This document shows positions 9,066 through 26,638 of a stretch of DNA of 64,000 nt, piece by piece (the first letter of the stretch is position 1; every line of letters starts with the position of its first letter). Source of the stretch: an uncultured Chthonomonadaceae bacterium (GTDB lineage Bacteria; Armatimonadota; Chthonomonadetes; Chthonomonadales; Chthonomonadaceae); contig CAWFQB010000002.1 of NCBI GenBank assembly GCA_963817895.1, positions 608,001 through 672,000 on the forward strand, read 5' to 3'. The notes under the pieces were generated by a model. It saw only the letters and a list, made by a program, of their open reading frames with translations. It made no database searches and had not been told where the DNA came from. Position numbers and translations under genes: made by a program.

Positions 9066-9842
9066 TTGCAGCCGGAAATTTCCTTATTTGATGGCAAAGT
9101 CTGTTCTCGCTGCAAGATTTGGCAGCCGTTCTGTAACTATTCCAAAGACAGTCAGAAGCTGGATGGTTTAAGGTACTTTTGTAAGACTTGCCGCAAGAAG
9201 GATAAGACGGATCCCGCTTATACAAAGGCTTACAACGAAGCGAACCCTGAAATTCGTAAAGCCGCGATGAAGAAATGGGCGGACGCGCATAAAAGTGAAC
9301 GCAATGAGTATAATCGTCAACGTTACCAAAATCCGAAGATAGCAGAGAAACTGCTTAACAGGGTTAAGAAGTATGCTGCTGCGCACAGGGAAGAACGCCT
9401 TCGATATGGCAGAAAATGGCGTGATAACCACAAAACCTTGATTGCGCAAAATCATAAGTCTTATTATCCGGGCTATTACTTCGCGCTAAAAGCATCGCCG
9501 GAAGAAGTTCGTAGGCTGTTGCCGAAATTCAAACATGCTTCTGATGCTGCAATACTGGATTGGCAGCATCGTCATAAAACGCAGGCTCGTCATCGAAAGT
9601 ACGCTTATCGCTCAAGGAGGCAATCCACCGATGGTAAGTTTACTAATCAAGAGTGGCAAGCATTATGCGTGGAGTTTGGGAGGCGCTGTCTTCGTTGTGG
9701 GGGACATGATGATCTGACAGCAGATCACATCATTCCACTCGTCTTGGGCGGCAGCAACGATATTTCAAATATTCAGCCACTTTGTAGATCATGCAATAGT
9801 TGGAAAAACAAAAGAACCATTGATTTTCGGAACATTGTTTAG
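9066..9842 (+). CDS. HNH endonuclease with N-terminal Cys4 zinc finger (phage-type)
   Basis: CSRC...DGLRYFCKTC; C-terminal CLRCG...DHIIPLVLGGSNDISNIQPLCRSCN. Confidence 0.9.
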   Translation: MQPEISLFDGKVCSRCKIWQPFCNYSKDSQKLDGLRYFCKTCRKKDKTDPAYTKAYNEANPEIRKAAMKKWADAHKSERNEYNRQRYQNPKIAEKLLNRVKKYAAAHREERLRYGRKWRDNHKTLIAQNHKSYYPGYYFALKASPEEVRRLLPKFKHASDAAILDWQHRHKTQARHRKYAYRSRRQSTDGKFTNQEWQALCVEFGRRCLRCGGHDDLTADHIIPLVLGGSNDISNIQPLCRSCNSWKNKRTIDFRNIV

Positions 9843-16553: not shown

Positions 16554-17619
16554 ATGCAAATAATCACACCCCGGCAGTTGAGCAAACTGCTTCTAAACGT
16601 TGCCATGACGCGCACAGTTTTTATCTGGGGGCCGCCCGGCATCGGCAAATCCGCGCTTGTGGAACGGTTCGCCCGTGAGGTCGGGCTGGACTGCGTCTCC
16701 CTGCTCGGTTCGCAACTGGCCCCGGAAGACCTGATCGGCGTCCCGCGCATCGAAGATGGGCGTTCCGTGTTCTGCCCGCCGCGCATGATTGCCCGCGATG
16801 AGGCGTACCTGCTGTTCGTGGACGAACTCAACGCCTGCTCATTCGAGGTGCAAAAAGCGTTTTACAGCCTCATCAATGATCGGCGGCTTGGCGAGTACCA
16901 TCTTCCCGCCGGTTCCGTTGTCGTCGGGGCGGGCAACCGGGCGCAGGATCAGGCGATTGTGAAACCGATGTCGTCCGCCCTGATGAACCGGATGCTGCAC
17001 GTTGAATTGAAGCCGACCGCCCGCGACTGGCTGGATTGGGCGTATGCGCAGGGCATTCACGAGTGGATCATTCGTTACATCGAAACCCGCCCCGACCATC
17101 TGGCCGCGCCCGCCGCCCAAAACCGAAGAAACGTTCAGCACGCCGCGCTCATGGCATATTCTGAGCGACGCCCTGCTCGCTTACGGTTCCGAGGTCAACG
17201 CCGGACGAGATCGAAATGCTGGCGTCCGGCTGTCTGAGCGGCAGCCATGCCCGCAGTTTCGGCGCGTTCATCAAGCAGTTGATGGGAACCCTGCGCATCG
17301 AGAAAATACTGTCCGGCGAACAGCCGCTTTGCCGCGTTCCGCCGAAGACCGGGACGTGTTGTATTTCATTGTGCAGTCCATTCGCGCCCAACTCGCCAAA
17401 ACCCTGCCGCCCGAACGCGACGATGTCCGCCCCGCCCACCGCCAGATGGTCACGCAGGCCAAGCGCGTGTTGGTAGACCTGTGCGACATCAGCGTGGAAA
17501 TGGCGACGGTCATGGTAGCCGAAGAGATGGGCGAATCCGCCCGCAACCTGCCCGCGTGGTTTCTGGTGGAAGTGGTACGCGACCTGCCCCGTCTCGCGCA
17601 GCGCGTAGCGGTAAAATAA
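16554..17619 (+). CDS. MoxR-type AAA+ ATPase (frameshifts near 17105, 17205, 17330)
   Basis: WGPPGIGKS Walker A, LLFVDELN Walker B, GAGNR, ALMNR, TPRSW across three frames. Confidence 0.85.
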
Positions 17620-17624
17620 GGGGG

Positions 17625-17682
17625 CAGGATTCAGGATTCAGGGGTCAGGCGTAATCCACAATCAAAAATCGTCAATCAAAAA
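17625..17682. repeat. Heptamer tracts (CAGGATT-type, then AATCNAA-type)
   Basis: Two adjacent 7-bp repeat families in the intergenic gap. Confidence 0.55.
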
Positions 17683-19568
17683 TGAACAAAGAACGGAAGC
17701 AAAAAGAACAGCATAAGGAAGACCGACTGACGCGGACGCGGCAGCGGATACGGGGCGCGTGTTCGCAATTGCACAAGTCCGTGCTGTCGCCACTGCTTGC
17801 CAATGTCACGCTGTCGGAATGTGACGAGTCGGACAGTGACGTTGCCATCGGGGGCGTATCGCCGTCGAGTAATGCGCTGTGGGTCAATCCGCATCGGCGG
17901 CAGGAGTTGGGCGAGGCGGAATGGACGTTCATTCTCGCGCATCTGCTGCTGCATCTTGGGTTGGGACACGAGGCGGCATTGCCCGATAAACACGCCCTGC
18001 TGTGGACGCTGGCCTGCGAACACGCTTCAGACAATCTGGCCGCGTCCCTGCATCTGGGACGCGCGCCCCACGATTACGGCGTGGATACCGCCTTTGCGGG
18101 CATGACGGAAAACACTATTTACGACCTGCTTGCCAACGACAAACGCGCCCTTGCCAATGTGAAAACGTATGCGGGCGCAGGCCGTTCCGACATCATACGC
18201 CGCGAACCCCGTTCCGGCGTATCCCGTTCCATCGGCGAGTTGTATCAAACAGGCGGCAAGCGGCGCGATTACGAAATGCTGCTGGCGGAAGGCATCCGCA
18301 TGGGCGTGGAACGGGCGGTCGAGGAGGCGGCGGACACATTGGGGCAGGCAACGGAAGACCGAACCAAAACATGGCGCCCGCTTGAAAACGCGAAACGCTG
18401 GGTGATGAACGAGCTTCCGCTGCTGGGGGCATTGGCGGCGCAGTTGCGCGTGATTGCCGATGGCGCGATGTGCGACCGCATGGACATACCCGTCGCGGCG
18501 GTCAATGCGGGATTAGGCGAAATCTATTTTCATACCGGGCGCGGATTGTCGCAGGAGGAGGTATTGTTCGTGTACGTTCACGAACTGCTGCACGTCGCGC
18601 TTCTGCACCATGCCCGCTTACAGGGCCGTGACCCCTATCTTTGGAATCTAGCGGCGGATTTTGTCATCAACGGCTGGCTGGTGGAGATGGGCGTGGGGCA
18701 GTTCCCGCACGTCGGCGGCCTGTACGATCCGCGCTTGAAGGGCATGTCAGCCGAAGAAGTGTACGATCTGTTGGGGCGTGACCCGCGCAAATGCAAAGAA
18801 TCTGGTCGGCTTCGGCGGCAAAAAGGGCGACGTGCTGCTGGACGAGCGGCGCATCTACAAGGGCGAAGTGTCCACGCTGGACGACGTATACCGGCGGTGC
18901 ATGGCGTCGGGATTGGCGTGTCAGGGGTACGGGCGCGGCACGATGCCCGCCGGACTTGATCGAAGAGATCAAATCGCTGTTCACGCCGCCCGTGCCGTGG
19001 GATGTGGAACTGGCGCGGTGGATGGACGTCGCATGTTCCGATTGTGCGCGAAACCCTGCGCTCGTATGGACGGGCCAGTCGGCGGCAGGCGTCCACTCCC
19101 GATATTCCGCGCCCCGCCCGGTATGTGCCGCAGGAGTGGCGCGACGCCTGCACGTTCGGCGTGGTTTTGGATACGTCCGGCTCGATGGATCGGGAATTGT
19201 TGGGGCGGGCATTGGGCGCAATCGCGTCCTATGCCGAAGCCCGCGAAGTTCCTGCGGTTCGACTGGTCTTGTGCGACGCCGCGCCGTATGACCGGGGCTT
19301 TCTCTGCCCTACCGACCTGCGCGGCATATTCCCGGTTCAGGGGCGAGGAGGAACGGTTTTGCAGCCCGCCATCAACTACCTGCTCAACCGCCCGGACTTT
19401 CCCGGTTCCGCGCCCGTAATGATTATCACGGATGGCTGGTGCGAGGAGGAGTTGCTCGTGCCGCGCGACCATTGCTTTGTTATGCCGCGCAAAGGCTGGA
19501 AGGAGGGCGCAATGCCGCTAAGAACGTCCGCCCCCATCTTCCGCGTCCTCAAACCGGATCAGGAATAA
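17682..19568 (+). CDS. DUF2201-type putative metallopeptidase + vWA domain protein (frameshifted)
   Basis: HELLH...WNLAADFVIN; DTSGSM MIDAS, GRGGT, IITDG in the downstream frame. Confidence 0.85.
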
Positions 19569-20252: not shown

Positions 20253-21653
20253 TCACTTTCCGTCTCGCCGCGTATCTCCTGGATATTTTGGATTCACAAC
20301 TCCGGTTTTAATTTTATAAGCGTAGAAAGATACTAGTGAGACACATACTAATGTTATGAGTACAATTCCTTGATACAACAAACTGGAAGGATTAACCCAC
20401 TTTAACGTCTCAGCAACCACACCCACAGTGGCTATAGTCATTCCAACTAACGCAATTACGTTGGAACGGCGGCGCATAGCAGAGACATCATATTTGATAT
20501 TGGTAAGTGTCTCTTGCACTACTTGAAGGTCTTTACTGTACGAGCGCGGCAGATTCTCTCGTATCCACTCACCATTGAAGACGGTGCTGTATATGCAGTT
20601 ACGCACCTGGAGTAAGCCGTTTTCACTGCGAACAATGCCGGACAGTTTCAGATGAGATTTGACAAGAGATTTTTCCTCGTCTTCGACGGGAATGTTTTCC
20701 AGTAATACCTTCTGGTAGGTTATCAGGGCTTCCTCTTTGTTAGGGGCGCGCAACAACAGCATATCTCGGATAAACTGAAGGTGACTGTCCTGCCGACTCC
20801 CCCTTTCCAGGAATATTTCGTGAACCACTTTATCTATGTCGGCTTCGTTCCAGTGGGCGCAATTCTGCTCACATAGGGCGCGAAATAGTCGTTGCGTCAG
20901 ATACGGATGCCCGCCTGTCCATTCCAGCGCCCATGTCACAACCTGCCGGGTTTGTCGGGAATTAAGGTTGAGGGGCTGCGCCAGAGGCAGTGTCTCTTCT
21001 GCCGTAAAGTCGGCGAGTTCCACGTGCTGTCCGATGTTGAACGGAGTGCGTGAGGGATCGCGGATCAGATCGCCGGGGGTTGCCACGCCGATTAGCACAA
21101 ACGAGAGCCTTTTGAGGTTTTCGTCCGTTGCCCGCGCGTTGTAGGTAGCGCGAATGGCGGCAAAGAAGTCGTCCGTAAAGCCAAGACTCAGGGTTGTATC
21201 TATCTCATCAATGAAGATAACAATGGGCTGGCTGACCTCGACAAGCAGAATCTGCTGAAAGAATTTCATCAGACGCTGTACCGGCCCAAGATCAGACGTG
21301 GTTTTCCACCATGTCAGCACGTCCGTCGAGAGAGGCAACTGCTCTTCTATTTTTATGAGCAGGCCCAGATACCAGGCTTCGGGAGTCACTTGCGTACCGA
21401 TTGCCGTCAGATCAATAATGACCGCCTGCACGTTTTGCTGTTTCAAACGGCGCGCGGTTTCGATCATCAGGCTCGACTTGCCGACCTGACGCGACGACAA
21501 AACATAGGCGAACGTACCGGCGCAGCACAGGTTCAGCAGATGCGTGTCCGCCTGTCGCGCGATGTACAATCCACCACCCGCCTGCACCGTTCCGCCCACC
21601 GTGTAAATGCCGGGCGCAGTTACTCTTTCCGCAATTTGCATTTTGACTCCCAC
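20253..21653 (-). CDS. AAA_35-like STAND NTPase with C-terminal 2-TM domain
   Basis: SSRQVGKSS, IFIDEID, GGHPYLT, then two hydrophobic helices. Confidence 0.85.
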   Translation of the reverse strand: MGVKMQIAERVTAPGIYTVGGTVQAGGGLYIARQADTHLLNLCCAGTFAYVLSSRQVGKSSLMIETARRLKQQNVQAVIIDLTAIGTQVTPEAWYLGLLIKIEEQLPLSTDVLTWWKTTSDLGPVQRLMKFFQQILLVEVSQPIVIFIDEIDTTLSLGFTDDFFAAIRATYNARATDENLKRLSFVLIGVATPGDLIRDPSRTPFNIGQHVELADFTAEETLPLAQPLNLNSRQTRQVVTWALEWTGGHPYLTQRLFRALCEQNCAHWNEADIDKVVHEIFLERGSRQDSHLQFIRDMLLLRAPNKEEALITYQKVLLENIPVEDEEKSLVKSHLKLSGIVRSENGLLQVRNCIYSTVFNGEWIRENLPRSYSKDLQVVQETLTNIKYDVSAMRRRSNVIALVGMTIATVGVVAETLKWVNPSSLLYQGIVLITLVCVSLVSFYAYKIKTGVVNPKYPGDTRRDGK

Positions 21654-21683
21654 GTAAAGCCTTCAAACAAAGCGACTGCGAGA

Positions 21684-22784
21684 TCAGGACGCAGGCGGCA
21701 TGTGGTTTTTAATCCAGCGCCCGTCAAAGACCTTTCGGTAAAGGCGGTTGCGGACATAAAGCCAATCTTGTTGACGATGCACGATGCCTGCCAGTTTCAA
21801 ATGGCACTTCAGCAGCGATTGTTCCTCATCCAGCACCTTGCGATCTTGCCTGTAAATCGCCTGGTACATTTGCAGGACGGTAAGGGCGCTTTCCGGATGT
21901 GGCGCGCGCTTGAGCAGCATGTCTTTGACAAAAGAGAGATTGTCATCGCCGCGTCCGCCGTCCTTCATAAATGTTTGGCGTATCAGAACTTCGAGTTCAG
22001 CCGGTGTCCATGCCTGAATCGGAACCTCTGCAATCAGGCGACATAACCTTTGCGTGAGGTGTGGGTGTCCTCCTGTCCATTCCAGCACCCCGCCAAACAG
22101 GTTCGACGCTTCCCGGTCGGGCAACTTCCAGCCACCAGTGAGGGAACACGCTTCTTGCTCGGTGAAATCGGTCAGTTCGATATGCTGTCCAATATCAAAT
22201 CGTCTTACGTTTACGTCGCGCAACAGTTCTCCGGGCGTCGCCACACCAACCAGAACAAAGGCCACGCGCCGCAGGTCGGGGTTTAAGGCGCGGCGGCTAT
22301 GCATCGCTCTGATTGCCATGAAAAAATCATCCATGGAAAACCCCAGGCTTAATATCAGATCAATTTCATCTATAAAGATGATAAGGCGATTAGGAACATG
22401 GGTGCGCAGCAGCTCCTCAAAAAAGTCAATCAAGCGCGGCCCCAGGGGCTTATCCCCGCAAGTGCTCCAAAGTTGCGCCACATTATTGGGAGAGCGCAGT
22501 TGGTCGCTGATCGTCGTTATAAACCCGTTATACCACTCCTCCTGCGTCAACTCCTTCCCAAGCGCCTGCAAATCCAAAAAAACCGTATTCGTGTCGTGAT
22601 TTTGCAGCTGATTCATCGCGCGCACGATCAGGCTTGTCTTACCCACTTGACGTGAAGCGAGGATATGCGCCGAATCCCCGTTAAGACAGTGCTTAAGCAG
22701 TTCGGCATCCGCTTTGCGCTCGATGTACAACCCTCTCTCCGGCGACACAGCCTCCCCAACAGTATACAAGGTTACATCAGACAC
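21684..22784 (-). CDS. Stand-alone AAA_35-like STAND NTPase
   Basis: GTG start with GGAGG RBS overlapping the upstream stop; ASRQVGKTS, IFIDEID, GGHPHLT. Confidence 0.85.
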   Translation of the reverse strand: MSDVTLYTVGEAVSPERGLYIERKADAELLKHCLNGDSAHILASRQVGKTSLIVRAMNQLQNHDTNTVFLDLQALGKELTQEEWYNGFITTISDQLRSPNNVAQLWSTCGDKPLGPRLIDFFEELLRTHVPNRLIIFIDEIDLILSLGFSMDDFFMAIRAMHSRRALNPDLRRVAFVLVGVATPGELLRDVNVRRFDIGQHIELTDFTEQEACSLTGGWKLPDREASNLFGGVLEWTGGHPHLTQRLCRLIAEVPIQAWTPAELEVLIRQTFMKDGGRGDDNLSFVKDMLLKRAPHPESALTVLQMYQAIYRQDRKVLDEEQSLLKCHLKLAGIVHRQQDWLYVRNRLYRKVFDGRWIKNHMPPAS

Positions 22785-25424
22785 GAAGATGCCTCCCGAA
22801 ATATTCGGCATACAGGGAACAGCGCGGCACAACAACGCTCTTTTCCAGCCGTACCAATCCCGCCCCACGCAGCCTAAAACTCATCTGCTCGTCATTCAGC
22901 GCACTTTTATTAATTACCAGTCGCATCGCCTTCATCTGATCCGGCTTGTTGGAAAGGCGCAGCAAATGGTAACGCAAGTGATCTCCGAACGGCCCGTTGT
23001 CCAGGGCAGCGGTTTCAAAAAACTCCTGCGCCGTATACCGTTCCTGCGCCAACAGATATAAGGCCCGCCGCGTCAGATAAGGATGCCCTGCCACCAATAG
23101 GTGTAATCGCGCGGCCTGTTCTTCATCCAAAGAGGGCGTATGGAGTTGATTTAGCTGGCGAACCTGATCCAGAGTAAAGTCGCTCAAGTCCACGACTTCG
23201 CCAACATTGAAAGGGGATTGATGCAGATCGTCTATCAATTGGTAGGGTTCGGTAGACGTTACCAGTGCCAGATCCAGTCGTTTCCAGCCGGGATCGCTGC
23301 CCGTCACCGCGCGATTGTTGTGCCAACTGCGCAGCATCGCAAAAAAATCGGCGCGGAAAGTGGTATCAAACACCGTTTCCACCTCATCCATTGCAAGAAC
23401 CACCGGCGCGTTAAGGGAGGGAAGCAAATGTTTTCCCATATAGCGCGTACAGCGTTGATTGTTACTCAACGGCGTATCCCAGTATTCCTGCACTTTGTCT
23501 TCGGCCTGTAGCGCGTCGGTCAGTGTCAGGCAGAACTGCTGGTAAAAACTATTCGCATCCAGAAGCGCGTCGCGTCCAAACAGTTGAAAATCAAGAAAAG
23601 CGACCCGTTTGTCGCGTTCCAGAGCCTCCTGCATCACTCAATTCAACAAGGAGCTTTTCCCTATTTGCCGGGGGCCTTTGATGGTGATCGTCACGCCGGA
23701 ACCGCGAATGGCTTCAATCGCCACGCGGTCAGCTTCACGCGCCACATAGAAAATCGAATCAGCCTGCATCGTCCCTTCAGGCTTTTCCAGCGGGATCGGC
23801 TGCGCGGCAGGGGCAGGCGCGACGGAAACAAGGGAATTGGGCGCGGGATTTAGAACCGGGATTTGCGCCAGTTCCGCGCCTCCGATAGCCTGCATCAACT
23901 GTTGCGCCAGCGCGTCAGTATCCTGTGGCCCGTTCCAAACAGCCCACTGAATAGGATCAAGATAGGAGTTCAGAGGATAGCGAAGGGGTTCCTTATAGCG
24001 CAGGCGTACCGGCAGAATACGCGGCCTGCCTTCGCGCTGCGCGCGGCGATGCGCGATTGCCACCTCCCCGCCCACCATCTCGCTGTTGACCGAGTGTTCC
24101 GAAAGCAATACAATCAGGAAATCAGCCCGTTCCAGTTCCGATTGTATGCGCCCCGCCCAATCCGTTCCTATTTCGATAATCTGGTCAATGAACACGTCAT
24201 GATGCGGGCGCAGAGCGGCGTAAAGTGCGCTCGCCACGCCGGTATCTTCCTCCACATGCCGATAGCTGATAAAGATGCGCACGCGCTTGTTTGCTGCCAA
24301 AGTGGTTTCCGTTGAAGTTGGAGGTTGCGCAGTAATTACGTTGGGCGTAGACTGTCCTGTGGCATTTGTCGCGGGGGCAGTCGCGTTGCTGTTTGTGGCG
24401 GAAGCCTGACCGCCTGTATTGACCGCGCCCGTCTGAACACCGATAGCCGCAACATTTGCCTGTGCAGGATACGTGGTAGACGTGGCGGCAGGAGATTTTT
24501 GCAGCAGGTACTGCGTCAGATGGTTTCGCGCCAGTTTCTCGAACTGCGCCTCGCCATTATACGTCCAGTACAGCCCCTCGGCGGGAAAGCGCCGTTTGAA
24601 TTCCAGCACATGCTTGAATTGATCAATCTCTTCCAGCGAGGTTGGCAAATACGCCTTCTGGTTGAAGTAGACCATGATTTGCGGACGGCCTGTTTCCTGC
24701 CAGGAGTGGTACGCGGTTAAAAATTCGTGTTCCGTACCCGATCCAGCATCCTGCGTAGGTGTCCCGAAGCGTTTCCAGAAAACACCGATGAGGATGTCCG
24801 CGTCCTGAATACGCAGGGAAGTGTCTACAACCCCCTGTGGGCCATACGGAGAAAATCCCGGCGCGGCGTCCGTTTCCCAACGTATCAGTTCAATCACTTT
24901 GCCCTGCGCAGGCGCGATAGTGTGGTTGATACCTCCACCACCCCCGCAAGCAGGTCGCGCTCGGCCTGCACATCGCCGGGGGAAGCAACGACAACGCGCC
25001 ATACCTGGCGCGTTGGCCCCGAAGAAGGCGGCGTAACGGTGGAGGCATTGTCGGAAGTGTTGACGGGAGTAGTTACGTTGCTTTGCGCAGAGGGGAAGGG
25101 ATTAGATACACCTTGTACGTTGCTTCCCTTTTGCGTGGCGGCAGTGGAAGCGCCTTGCTGTCGTAAAGTATGCACGAAGGCATTCAGGCGCTCGTTTGAT
25201 GGATTGATTTCCCACGCGCCTTCAGCCAGTTCAACGGCGCGCCCGCGCGCTACCGCCCACTGTACCAGATCGAATACTGTATCCGCCAAGCTGCCCTGCC
25301 CGACAATGGCGTTCAGGTTCATACCCAGCCGAAACCTGATCAGACGTTCCAATTCCCCGCGCGAAGGATAAGCCGCCAGTAACGCCTCATACAGCTGCTG
25401 AAACTGTTCCGATGTTAATTCCAT
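22777..25424 (-). CDS. EAD1-DUF4062-TIR-AAA_35 STAND protein (frameshift near 24930; in-frame TGA at 23638-23640)
   Basis: QQLYEALLAAYPS...LVQWA (EAD1-like); VASPGDV...ER, RWE, RFGTP, SGTEHEF (DUF4062-like); IFISY...GEV (TIR); GPRQIGKSS, LAMDEVE, AGHPYLT. Confidence 0.8.
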
Positions 25425-25673
25425 TGTCTGTCTGCCCGCCTCATGCTAACGGCTTGCCCGCCCGTTGATAAAAATACTGCTCATGCAAAGGCTATTATTC
25501 GTCAATCATTGTAAACTATCCTGCAAATTTGCACGACGATTGATTTTGTTTTTATTCCATTCTAATGAGCAAGTAACCCTGTTCTCAATCAGAGGACAGG
25601 GTTGCTTTATGCGCTTGCTTCAACAATGCGGCGGGGCGACGAATAAAGGCAAAACGTTGCAGTCACAATATCT

Positions 25674-26582
25674 TTAAGGACAGCGCTTACTGCGGGTTGG
25701 GACACGTACTCGGTTCGGCAGCGTTTCAGGTAGTTCAGGCCGTGTACCTGGCCGGTCATTTCCAGTTCGCCTTTGTAGACGGGGTCGTGCCAGCCTTCGA
25801 TGTCGATGCTGCCTTTGAAGCCGCCCCGGCGCAGATCGCTGATGATGTCGGTCCAGTTGCTGTCGCCAAAGCCGGGCGTGCGGTGGAAGGCGAACTGTGG
25901 CGGGCCGTGACGCCGTACTCGCGCGACCACGTCCCATAGGACCGTCGCGTCCTTGCCGTGGACGTGGAAGATCTTGTGCACCCATTTGCGCAGTTGCGGC
26001 AGTGGGGTCAATCAGGCTGACCATCTGGTGACACGGCTCCCACTCCAGGCCCAGGTTGTCGGCGGGAACGGCGTCGAACATCATTTCCCAGGCGGCGGGC
26101 TGTGCGCGATATTCCAGTCGCCGCTGCTGCCAGTCGCCGCCCATGTCGCAGTTTTCAAAGGCGATCTGAACGCCTTATCCGCGGCCCGCTTTGCCAGCGG
26201 CCCGAACACTTCCTTGAAACGGCGCGAGGGAGTCGGGAATGGGCTTGCCGCGCAAGCCGCCCCGTAAATCCGGCGACAATGTCCGCGCCGAAAGGGGCGC
26301 GTCGTCAATGGCGGCCTCCCACGCCCGCAGGGTTTCCAGGTCGGTTTCTTCGCCTTCCAGCGGGTTGCCGAACACGGCAAGGGAACTGACAACCGCCTGA
26401 TCGCCCAACGCCTCTCGGACACGCGGGGCCAGTTCTTTCAGGTTCGCGCCGCCGAGCGTCTGCCAGAACGAAATCTGGATACTCTCAAAGCCATGCGGCA
26501 AAATCTGCCGGATGTATCCGGCGCGATCGGCCTGCTTGCCGTCCGCCATCGTGCCGATGCGTATATCCGGCGTGTAGCTCAT
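25674..26582 (-). CDS. Sugar phosphate isomerase/epimerase (TIM barrel), several frameshifts
   Basis: GLEWEPCHQ, HVHGKDA, TPGFGDSNW, IDIEGWHD across ORF fragments. Confidence 0.8.
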
Positions 26583-26638
26583 GCGATTTCCCCTCATAAC
26601 AGCAGATTATTCTCAACACCGTTCAAGCAGAACAGGGC

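Follow-up and report, generated by a model that had tools for sequence, protein, structure and literature searches.

An unusual sensor-less variant of the widespread AAA_35 NTPase pair with two predicted NAD-directed effector domains

Introduction

Three consecutive STAND-type NTPase genes in an uncultured Chthonomonadaceae bacterium raise the question of whether they constitute an undescribed immune or conflict system and, if so, where its input and output would lie. To our knowledge, each of the bacterial STAND defences tested so far consists of one cytosolic chain that recognises phage proteins by binding them. In NAIP-NLRC4 and in plant sensor/helper NLR pairs, cytosolic paralogous STAND proteins divide sensing and output between them. 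The locus lies in a window of 64,000 nucleotides (the whole stretch of DNA that was analysed; contig CAWFQB010000002.1, positions 608,001 to 672,000), and its initial annotation proposed a heteromeric NLR-like complex combining NAD+ depletion or signalling with membrane disruption or anchoring.

Results

Organization of the locus

The three genes follow each other on the minus strand (Table 1), genes 1 and 2 overlapping by 8 bp, as initially described. The 30-bp gap reported before gene 3 requires a GTG start at 21653; the ATG at 21641, with a GGGAG site upstream and a gap of 42 bp, is the more likely start judging from the sequence. A reading of genes 2 and 3 as one broken fusion was ruled out, since two in-frame stops and a ribosome-binding site separate them. 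Three sigma-70-like promoter candidates were seen against 4.1 expected.

All three products are, by profile match, AAA_35 (PF14516) STAND-type NTPases, scoring 290 and 36 bits (the two gene 1 pieces), 110 bits (gene 2) and 128 bits (gene 3) at a cut-off of 27. Walker A, Walker B (DE) and the GHP (GxP) motif are present in each, in line with the initial annotation, and are conserved across 66 homologues of each of two subtypes, here called A (gene 1) and B (genes 2 and 3); GK[ST] and DE are retained in 66/66 for both. AAA_35 may correspond to the Npun2340/2341 family of Nostoc, a member of the MNS clade. Pfam scanning of the three genes showed neither TPR nor WD40, as had been claimed, so that the one-chain effector-STAND-repeat-sensor layout of Avs and bNACHT proteins is absent here.

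Table 1. Features of the three-NTPase locus (positions in the window)
Feature	Position	Strand	Details
Promoter candidate, sigma-70-like, upstream of gene 1	25559..25588	-	10/12 matching; count no better than chance
Gene 1, subtype A: EAD1 - NIR(DUF4062) - TIR - AAA_35 NTPase	22777..25424	-	~882 aa, assuming that both breaks are errors
EAD1 adaptor domain, residues 1-87	25164..25424	-	Pfam PF19955, 6.3e-20
Frameshift, one base short, near 24931	24929..24933	-	Probably assembly error
NIR/DUF4062 TIR-fold domain, predicted NADase	24501..25004	-	Candidate catalytic Glu 24726-24724; PDC-S60 N-terminus match 8e-29
TIR domain	23881..24285	-	PF13676 (TIR_2), 77 bits, 1.8e-21; candidate catalytic Glu 24066-24064
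Subtype A AAA_35 NTPase	22780..23799	-	Walker A ~23676-23653, Walker B, GHP; 347.6 bits across stop
In-frame TGA directly after Walker A	23638..23640	-	Arg in 57/66 homologues at same place
Gene 2 (366 aa), subtype B NTPase, bare and lacking a membrane helix	21684..22784	-	Fast-evolved; 8-bp overlap with gene 1
Gene 3, subtype B NTPase with C-terminal two-helix membrane hairpin, no outer sensor, 462 aa	20253..21641	-	
Membrane hairpin, residues ~395-443	20313..20459	-	Hydropathy 2.03 and 2.24; flanked by basic residues (ahead of helix 1, behind helix 2)

Gene 1 combines an adaptor and two TIR-fold domains

The EAD1 and TIR_2 assignments of gene 1 exceed their Pfam cut-offs. The DUF4062 assignment holds through homologues that are 57-69% identical and in many cases carry PF13271, and not through the domain's own Pfam score (18.4 bits against a cut-off of 24.7), which is low because the frameshift splits the domain; the homologue P0242 is an intact NIR-TIR-AAA_35 protein. 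Both TIR-fold domains keep the candidate catalytic Glu noted initially, which is found in 119/119 aligned homologues for NIR/DUF4062 and in 205/208 for TIR. The TIR domain, present in 60/64 N-terminal regions of relatives, is the constant partner of this A subfamily. A recent preprint reports that NIR (DUF4062) has been shown to act as an NADase in Avs2, Vulcan and Vesta, where it is the effector, with NAD+ hydrolysed to ADPR and nicotinamide and the bacterial members tested causing NAD+ depletion and growth arrest (bioRxiv 10.64898/2026.09.04.749371). By sequence, the NIR domain of gene 1 is likewise predicted to be an NADase. EAD1 had been considered a route of input; gene 1 holds the only EAD1 match in the 81%-complete genome (G000), and since no second EAD1 was found there on a partner protein, input through this domain finds no support in this incomplete genome.

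The domains and motifs of gene 1 stand, but its frame is disrupted twice in the assembly, near 24931 and at 23640-23638. The frameshift is probably an assembly error: run X1 yields a single contig here (151 bp, depth 2.1), and it is longer by one base at the site, and the assembly carries a background of 0.20 frameshifts per kb. The TGA lies outside the coverage of run X1. In-frame stops in the assembly amount to 8 in 4/121 genes, three of these genes being multi-stop and probably not true genes. The TGA may be an error or a real nonsense mutation, in which case the gene is possibly broken in this strain; for the module to work, the TGA has to be either an error or a strain-level variant.

Gene 2 is a derived, bare B NTPase and gene 3 a predicted membrane-anchored one

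Gene 2 is fast-evolved, with a long branch (1.61), and keeps 89 of 120 near-invariant columns against a median of 118.5; gene 3 keeps 114. A fragment, P0016, is 69-70% identical to gene 2, equally bare and shares its odd residues, an indication that the derived state is under selection. Gene 2 also carries conserved changes of its own in the loop where the arginine fingers of AAA+ proteins lie. Describing genes 2 and 3 as close paralogues was an overstatement, as their 45% identity does not exceed that to other phyla (up to 47% for gene 2 and 59.5% for gene 3); their sister grouping has weak support (68/73) and a FastTree run kept them apart.

The AF2 model of gene 2 (pLDDT 86.6) has the STAND layout, with helical and winged-helix-like domains downstream of the P-loop domain. 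Its full-length fold matches include SSO1545, resistosomes, NLRC4, CED-4 and Avs. The best are two archaeal ATPases at 15% identity, SSO1545 (2fna; Z 18.9, rmsd 4.4, 312 aligned) and PAB2304 (2qen; Z 18.1, rmsd 4.6, 308 aligned), stand-alone proteins without TIR or NIR effectors; NLR resistosomes rank below (Z 15.6). As far as the model goes, these matches are consistent with the MNS clade and the Npun2340/2341 family.

By hydropathy, gene 3 ends in two hydrophobic helices and gene 2 has none, as annotated initially. At low confidence (pLDDT 58), the hairpin is modelled as a helix pair joined by a short loop, and no outer domain is present. Base composition makes the tail look grafted (GC 0.41 and GC3 0.36 against 0.54 and 0.63 in the core). 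No credible homologue of it was found among 1.84 billion representatives (two weak matches, in repeat proteins), and no Pfam family covers it in a whole-protein scan. Its identification as a known mobile two-helix effector was dropped for want of a credible homologue; the best Atlas score, 0.77, is a lead only.

The locus departs from a conserved A-B pair

Subtype A adjoins subtype B in 60 of 62 informative loci from many phyla (66 loci less four at contig ends), and the 8-bp overlap of genes 1 and 2 often recurs. Generally, A proteins consist of a variable domain, TIR and NTPase, and B proteins of NTPase, membrane helix and outer sensor. The helix lies behind the B NTPase in 46/59 proteins, followed by WD40 (37/59) or a lectin-like FGE-sulfatase domain (10/59), and the sensors are predicted to be outside the cytoplasm. 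Other A proteins carry guanylate/adenylate cyclase, kinase or FHA domains. AAA_35 pairs appear to split sensing and output over two NTPases, with sensing across the membrane. In five natural fusions (P0081, P0082, P0084, P0085 and L050) a membrane-less B is joined to TIR-A, in L147 B-B-TM lies downstream of A, and 2 of 78 other loci contain at least three NTPase domains. The host genome has 25 AAA_35 matches, including several B genes without a neighbouring A, and relatives have up to 29; that the operon is a variant of so common a pair had been overlooked.

A conserved 1+2 architecture is not supported, because it is the 1+1 pair that is conserved, and searches turned up no orthologous triple in 66 genome loci, 32 metagenome loci or one same-phylum locus, nor, starting from gene 2 at strict E-values, among the 5-6 candidates scored per genome in sets of 401, 401 and 301 genomes. 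Single-protein scans of metagenome and viral contigs likewise gave nothing, 50,697 phage records contained no match, and there was no PDB sequence match. By its domain content the locus is an unusual sensor-less variant of the widespread pair, with a doubled B and an A carrying EAD1 and NIR besides TIR.

A complex model of the gene 1 NTPase with gene 2 scored 0.52 (best of three controls, 0.00), with at least 84% of contacts agreeing between runs and partner pLDDT of at least 82. The mark used was reached by 116/157 solved and 2/215 mismatched pairs; since 18 solved pairs and both mismatched ones reached it at scores of 0.60 or below, the model lends weak support to an A-B contact.

Genomic context and links to defence

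The operon has no DNA match in any of five relatives in which both flanks are matched, and neither B gene groups with the host's own expansion (support 100/99). In two congeners the abortive-infection pair AbiEi-AbiEii adjoins one flank gene at this junction, the left in G002 and the right in G001; no relative with AbiE between both flank genes was found, nor were repeats resembling target duplications at the insertion ends. PADLOC v2.0.0 and NCBIfam 20.0 gave partial TIR and DUF4062-region matches only, under cut-offs, with no full-length match to a described system in either. PADLOC hits, in 14/133 neighbours of family members and 12/133 of a crude control from one other genome, showed no enrichment of defence genes in this comparison.

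Discussion

Several known systems resemble parts of the locus. The two-gene system in PMC8195603 (2021) probably shares the NTPase family, and has in common with it the A-then-B order, the 8-bp overlap, a TIR beside A and a helix after B; the locus differs in its extra bare B, EAD1-NIR ahead of TIR and lack of an outer sensor. The nSTAND2 two-gene system, as far as it is described in the same text (Kaur et al. 2021, PMC8195603), is also an operon of STAND NTPases predicted to form a hetero-multimer, but there GT4 or HEPN is fused to an NTPase whose motifs have eroded, whereas here both subtypes keep Walker A/B, the effectors are TIR and NIR, B is membrane-bound, and Pfam scanning found no GT4 or HEPN in the three genes. 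PsAvs2 and other NIR-STAND anti-phage proteins are likewise reported to have, ahead of a STAND NTPase, a NIR NADase that keeps the conserved Glu (bioRxiv 10.64898/2026.09.04.749371). Avs2 is, by that preprint, a single chain that recognises phage terminase through a TPR sensor, in contrast to the three chains, other NTPase family, membrane anchor and absence of TPR seen here, and no Avs profile was matched by the locus proteins. NAIP-NLRC4 and plant NLR pairs, both represented among the fold matches, share the divided sensing and output by analogy only, there being no profile-level sequence kinship. A literature search returned no functional or descriptive study of the AAA_35 A-B pair; the accessible text of Lee et al. 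2026 (PMC13581612) nowhere names AAA_35, although its clade tables may list such proteins under other labels.

We tentatively favor, at slightly short of an even chance, a horizontally acquired, stripped-down AAA_35 two-NTPase receptor, that is, a split, membrane-tethered, NLR-like switch that depletes NAD+; wired to two predicted NAD-destroying domains, this sensor-less A-B variant most likely acts as a membrane-anchored immune-type switch. The hairpin would hold gene 3 in the inner membrane, leaving its NTPase in the cytoplasm; once triggered, gene 3 would nucleate an ATP-dependent hetero-oligomer, gene 2 serving as a soluble B subunit between gene 3 and gene 1, and gene 1 being brought in by NTPase-NTPase contact. 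Clustering would activate NIR and TIR, so that NAD+ is destroyed or converted and the cell arrests in an abortive-infection or conflict response. As there is no outer sensor, the trigger would most likely arise within the membrane, from a membrane protein or envelope damage. The heteromeric complex, NAD+-directed output and membrane anchoring proposed initially fit the A-B coupling, the B-TIR-A and B-B fusions, the A-B model and the published activity of NIR. The conserved Glu of both TIR-fold domains, the AbiE genes beside the flanks in congeners, the operon's lack of a DNA match in relatives and the placement of both B genes also count for the favored reading.

That the locus is instead a decaying remnant, in which an incoming pair lost its sensor, duplicated B and had gene 1 silenced by a real nonsense mutation, is unlikely but deserves serious weight. 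The TGA in an assembly where such errors are rare, the missing sensor and the lack of an orthologous triple all suit decay and, together with the lack of a second EAD1, are counted against the favored reading; gene 2, moreover, lacks 31/120 near-invariant residues on its long branch. Against decay, genes 2 and 3 are open with Walker A, Walker B and GHP intact, P0016 points to selection, the frameshift is absent in run X1, and one strain's stop does not render the design non-functional.

Somewhat less probable again is a signalling rather than killing role, with TIR yielding an NAD-derived messenger or scaffolding partners upon an envelope cue. A proteins bearing cyclases or kinases are probably signalling switches, and the cyclase, kinase and FHA outputs suit signalling equally, which, like the flat PADLOC comparison and the lack of a relative with AbiE between both flanks, is counted against the favored reading; the many AAA_35 copies per genome in relatives and the B sensors, predicted to face outward, agree with signalling too. 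However, with NIR the locus gains a domain whose bacterial members, where tested, are reported to deplete NAD+ and halt growth, and the operon is patchy and occupies a place that holds AbiE in congeners.

Activation in trans of an effector-and-helper cassette by the host's other B-type WD40 receptors would suit the many AAA_35 genes, the B genes without an adjoining A and the missing sensor, but is improbable, given that those B proteins form a distant, well-supported clade and that A-B pairs are usually cognate and coupled. A pore-forming gene 3 tail, for which its two helices, short loop, lack of an outer domain and grafted low-GC look would speak, is the least credible proposal, and the membrane disruption suggested initially is not supported, because helix 1 follows closely behind the NTPase at the family-wide anchor position and the tail has no credible homologue among 1.84 billion representatives and no Pfam family in the whole-protein scan.

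Returning to the membrane-tethered switch, a bolder version of it is doubtful, a shade more so than signalling: a three-tier NLR cascade in which the hairpin NTPase would read inner-membrane disturbance directly, gene 2 would amplify as a dedicated soluble helper and gene 1 would fire two different NADases. If true, sensor/helper NLR networks would have a counterpart in bacteria, one that senses at the membrane. The kind of pair is itself known; what sets the locus apart, by domain content, is the missing outer sensor, the doubling of B and the addition of EAD1 and NIR. Limited as its usefulness is by the gene 1 stop and the missing orthologous triples, the locus is a minimal form without a large sensor and with an easily assayed output, NAD+, and thus a handy entry point to the A-B heteromer and the role of the bare B subunit.

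Domain content and predicted structures

The initial annotation described three minus-strand genes, the first with an EAD1-DUF4062-TIR-NTPase architecture, and the Pfam scan agrees: gene 1 matches EAD1, DUF4062 (partially), TIR_2 and AAA_35, while genes 2 and 3 have AAA_35 as their sole match. The PADLOC check it proposed, run together with NCBIfam, returned only partial matches to the TIR-fold regions. The gene 2 model is confident (pLDDT 86.6), and its fold is closest to SSO1545 and PAB2304, followed by NLRs and ORC/Cdc6. Of the proposed complex modelling, the run pairing the gene 1 NTPase, given as two pieces with ATP, with gene 2 scored 0.52 (best control 0.00), a value that the modelling tool itself grades as weak support for a contact between the two.

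Features of the operon and its surroundings
Feature	Position	Strand	Remarks
Gene 1	25424-22777	-	subtype A NTPase gene
Gene 2	22784-21684	-	subtype B NTPase gene
Gene 3	21641-20253	-	subtype B NTPase gene
MoxR-type AAA ATPase, then DUF2201 metallopeptidase-vWA gene	16554-19568	+	353 and 628 aa in congener G002
Xylose-isomerase-like TIM-barrel gene	25607-26597	-	several frames here, one ORF in congener G001
258-aa ORF	9066-9839	+	Cys-rich start, lower-GC stretch

The AAA_35 two-subtype family

AAA_35 has 25 matches in the window's genome and is present in 37 of the 61 genomes of the relatives search, this one included; its NTPases split into two subtypes, A and B. Of the 66 loci fetched with the gene 1 NTPase, 62 were informative, and in 60 of these A adjoins B. 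A TIR precedes the A NTPase in 60/64 N-terminal regions, the four without it being short, and upstream of the TIR lie CHAT (27), trypsin (2) or PNP (1) domains; A forms with cyclase, kinase or FHA domains also occur. A hydrophobic helix follows the B NTPase in 46/59 proteins, and beyond it, counted over the first 520 residues, are WD40 (37/59), FGE-sulfatase (10), GH25 (1) or NB-ARC-TPR (1), with no match in 10. Basic residues ahead of the helix suggest that the B sensor lies outside. B genes at L128, L129, L133, L150 and L160 have no membrane helix and share a helical tail behind the NTPase; they are probably cytoplasmic receptors of the pair family. Odd B tails comprise TPR with GH25 lysozyme, NB-ARC with TPR, and a C-terminal NIR (L087:8821-12195, L091:1515-4553, P0256). 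Searches for B homologues matched 45 plasmid records and no phage record. Our literature search found no paper on the function of the AAA_35 pair.

The one-plus-two architecture of the initial annotation did not emerge as the conserved unit, which is the common A-B pair, the triple being so far unique. Elsewhere in the same genome, a second 1+2 locus (C10:186313-195338, L002 region) encodes two long B proteins with WD40-like tails, then A, and all three genes belong to the host's own clade.

Distinctive features of the operon

The first distinctive trait is the output, NIR, TIR and EAD1 combined in gene 1. NIR is the new name of DUF4062, which was shown to serve Avs2, Vulcan and Vesta as an NADase effector (bioRxiv 10.64898/2026.09.04.749371), and EAD1 coupling was defined in Kaur et al. 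2020 (PMC7159879). P0242 is an intact NIR-TIR-AAA_35 protein, and EAD1 is present in one more A protein, at L144. The second trait is gene 3, which carries a hairpin but lacks an outer domain; the tail of this gene is poor in GC, and a homologue search with it found none. The third is gene 2, a bare B in which 89 of the 120 near-invariant columns are kept, against a median of 118.5 and 114 in gene 3; its bare end is shared by P0016, a fragment 69-70% identical. In the loop ahead of the last core strand, Arg is found in 66/66 B and Gln in 64/66 A proteins, and gene 2 has Val at the B Arg position with Arg directly after; these residues may reflect an arginine-finger difference.

At least three NTPase domains occur in 2/78 loci, L050 (7275-15550: TIR-A; B-TIR-A; B-TM-WD40) and L147 (2-3470: A; B-B-TM ending in a short outer tail). 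The latter repeats the order of the operon via a separate internal duplication. B-TIR-A fusions exist in nature (P0081, P0082, P0084, P0085).

Integrity of gene 1

Two breaks interrupt gene 1: near 24931 the frame shifts by one base, and a TGA stands at 23640-23638. Against G002 proteins, with 121 of 247 ORFs passing identity and coverage filters, the assembly has 28 frameshifts in 19/121 genes (0.20 per kb). In-frame stops are rare, 8 in 4/121 genes, and three of these four genes, each with several stops, are probably shadow frames. The neighbouring MoxR and vWA genes, which lie outside the insertion because they are syntenic in G002, are likewise frameshifted here and whole there; the split TIM-barrel gene is a further sign of indel errors. 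A single short contig of sequencing run X1 matches the assembly over 151 bases except for one additional base, which sits exactly at the frameshift; the contig has a depth of 2.1, and X1 is perhaps not independent of the assembly. Since the assembly has frameshifts elsewhere and X1 has this additional base, the frameshift is probably an assembly error. X1 covers this site, not the TGA, where 57/66 homologues have Arg (4 loci missed by the motif pattern were dropped). Gene 1 may be dead in this genome, and to an operon in decay we assign a minor but real chance.

Genomic origin and surroundings

In a tree of 43 of 148 rows, the host's own expansion excludes both B genes (support 100/99), which are weak sisters (68/73). 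The operon DNA has no match in five relatives, although both flanks do. In G002 the left flank gene is followed by AbiEi-AbiEii, and in G001 this pair faces the gene of the right flank, the orientations matching. This suggests a slot swapping defence cassettes; AbiE was seen between both flank genes in no single relative, and no close AbiEii was found in the window's genome. G001 also encodes an anti-phage dCTP deaminase homologue (L119:10222-11754, PADLOC 9e-151), roughly 9 kb away from this junction. The 258-aa ORF gives the impression of a mobile endonuclease.

The survey for defence-island enrichment that the initial annotation proposed showed none against a crude control from one genome: at E 1e-20, PADLOC matched 14 of the 133 family-flanking ORFs submitted (from 154) and 12 of the 133 G002 control ORFs submitted (from 140), mostly generic kinases or repeats in both.

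Proposed mechanism and relation to known systems

Beyond the observed parts, motifs, coupling and family grammar, our leading but tentative reading is a membrane-anchored heteromeric NTPase switch. Gene 3, anchored in the membrane, would nucleate an oligomer that gene 2 would extend or tune and to which gene 1 would be recruited; NIR and TIR, once clustered, would consume NAD+. Their candidate catalytic Glu is retained in 119/119 NIR and 205/208 TIR homologues. Signalling without killing is rather unlikely, and activation in trans by host receptors is improbable. That the gene 3 hairpin serves as a pore is very improbable.

As an NTPase switch, the operon would work in a similar way to NLR or Avs systems, but it is a member of neither Avs nor nSTAND2. 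Kaur et al. 2021 (PMC8195603) name a family, Npun2340/2341, of the MNS clade and an operon encoding two STAND NTPases. The operon is a variant within the known AAA_35 pair family, a family that merits testing; the conserved unit is the pair, the triple so far stands alone and gene 1 may be dead.
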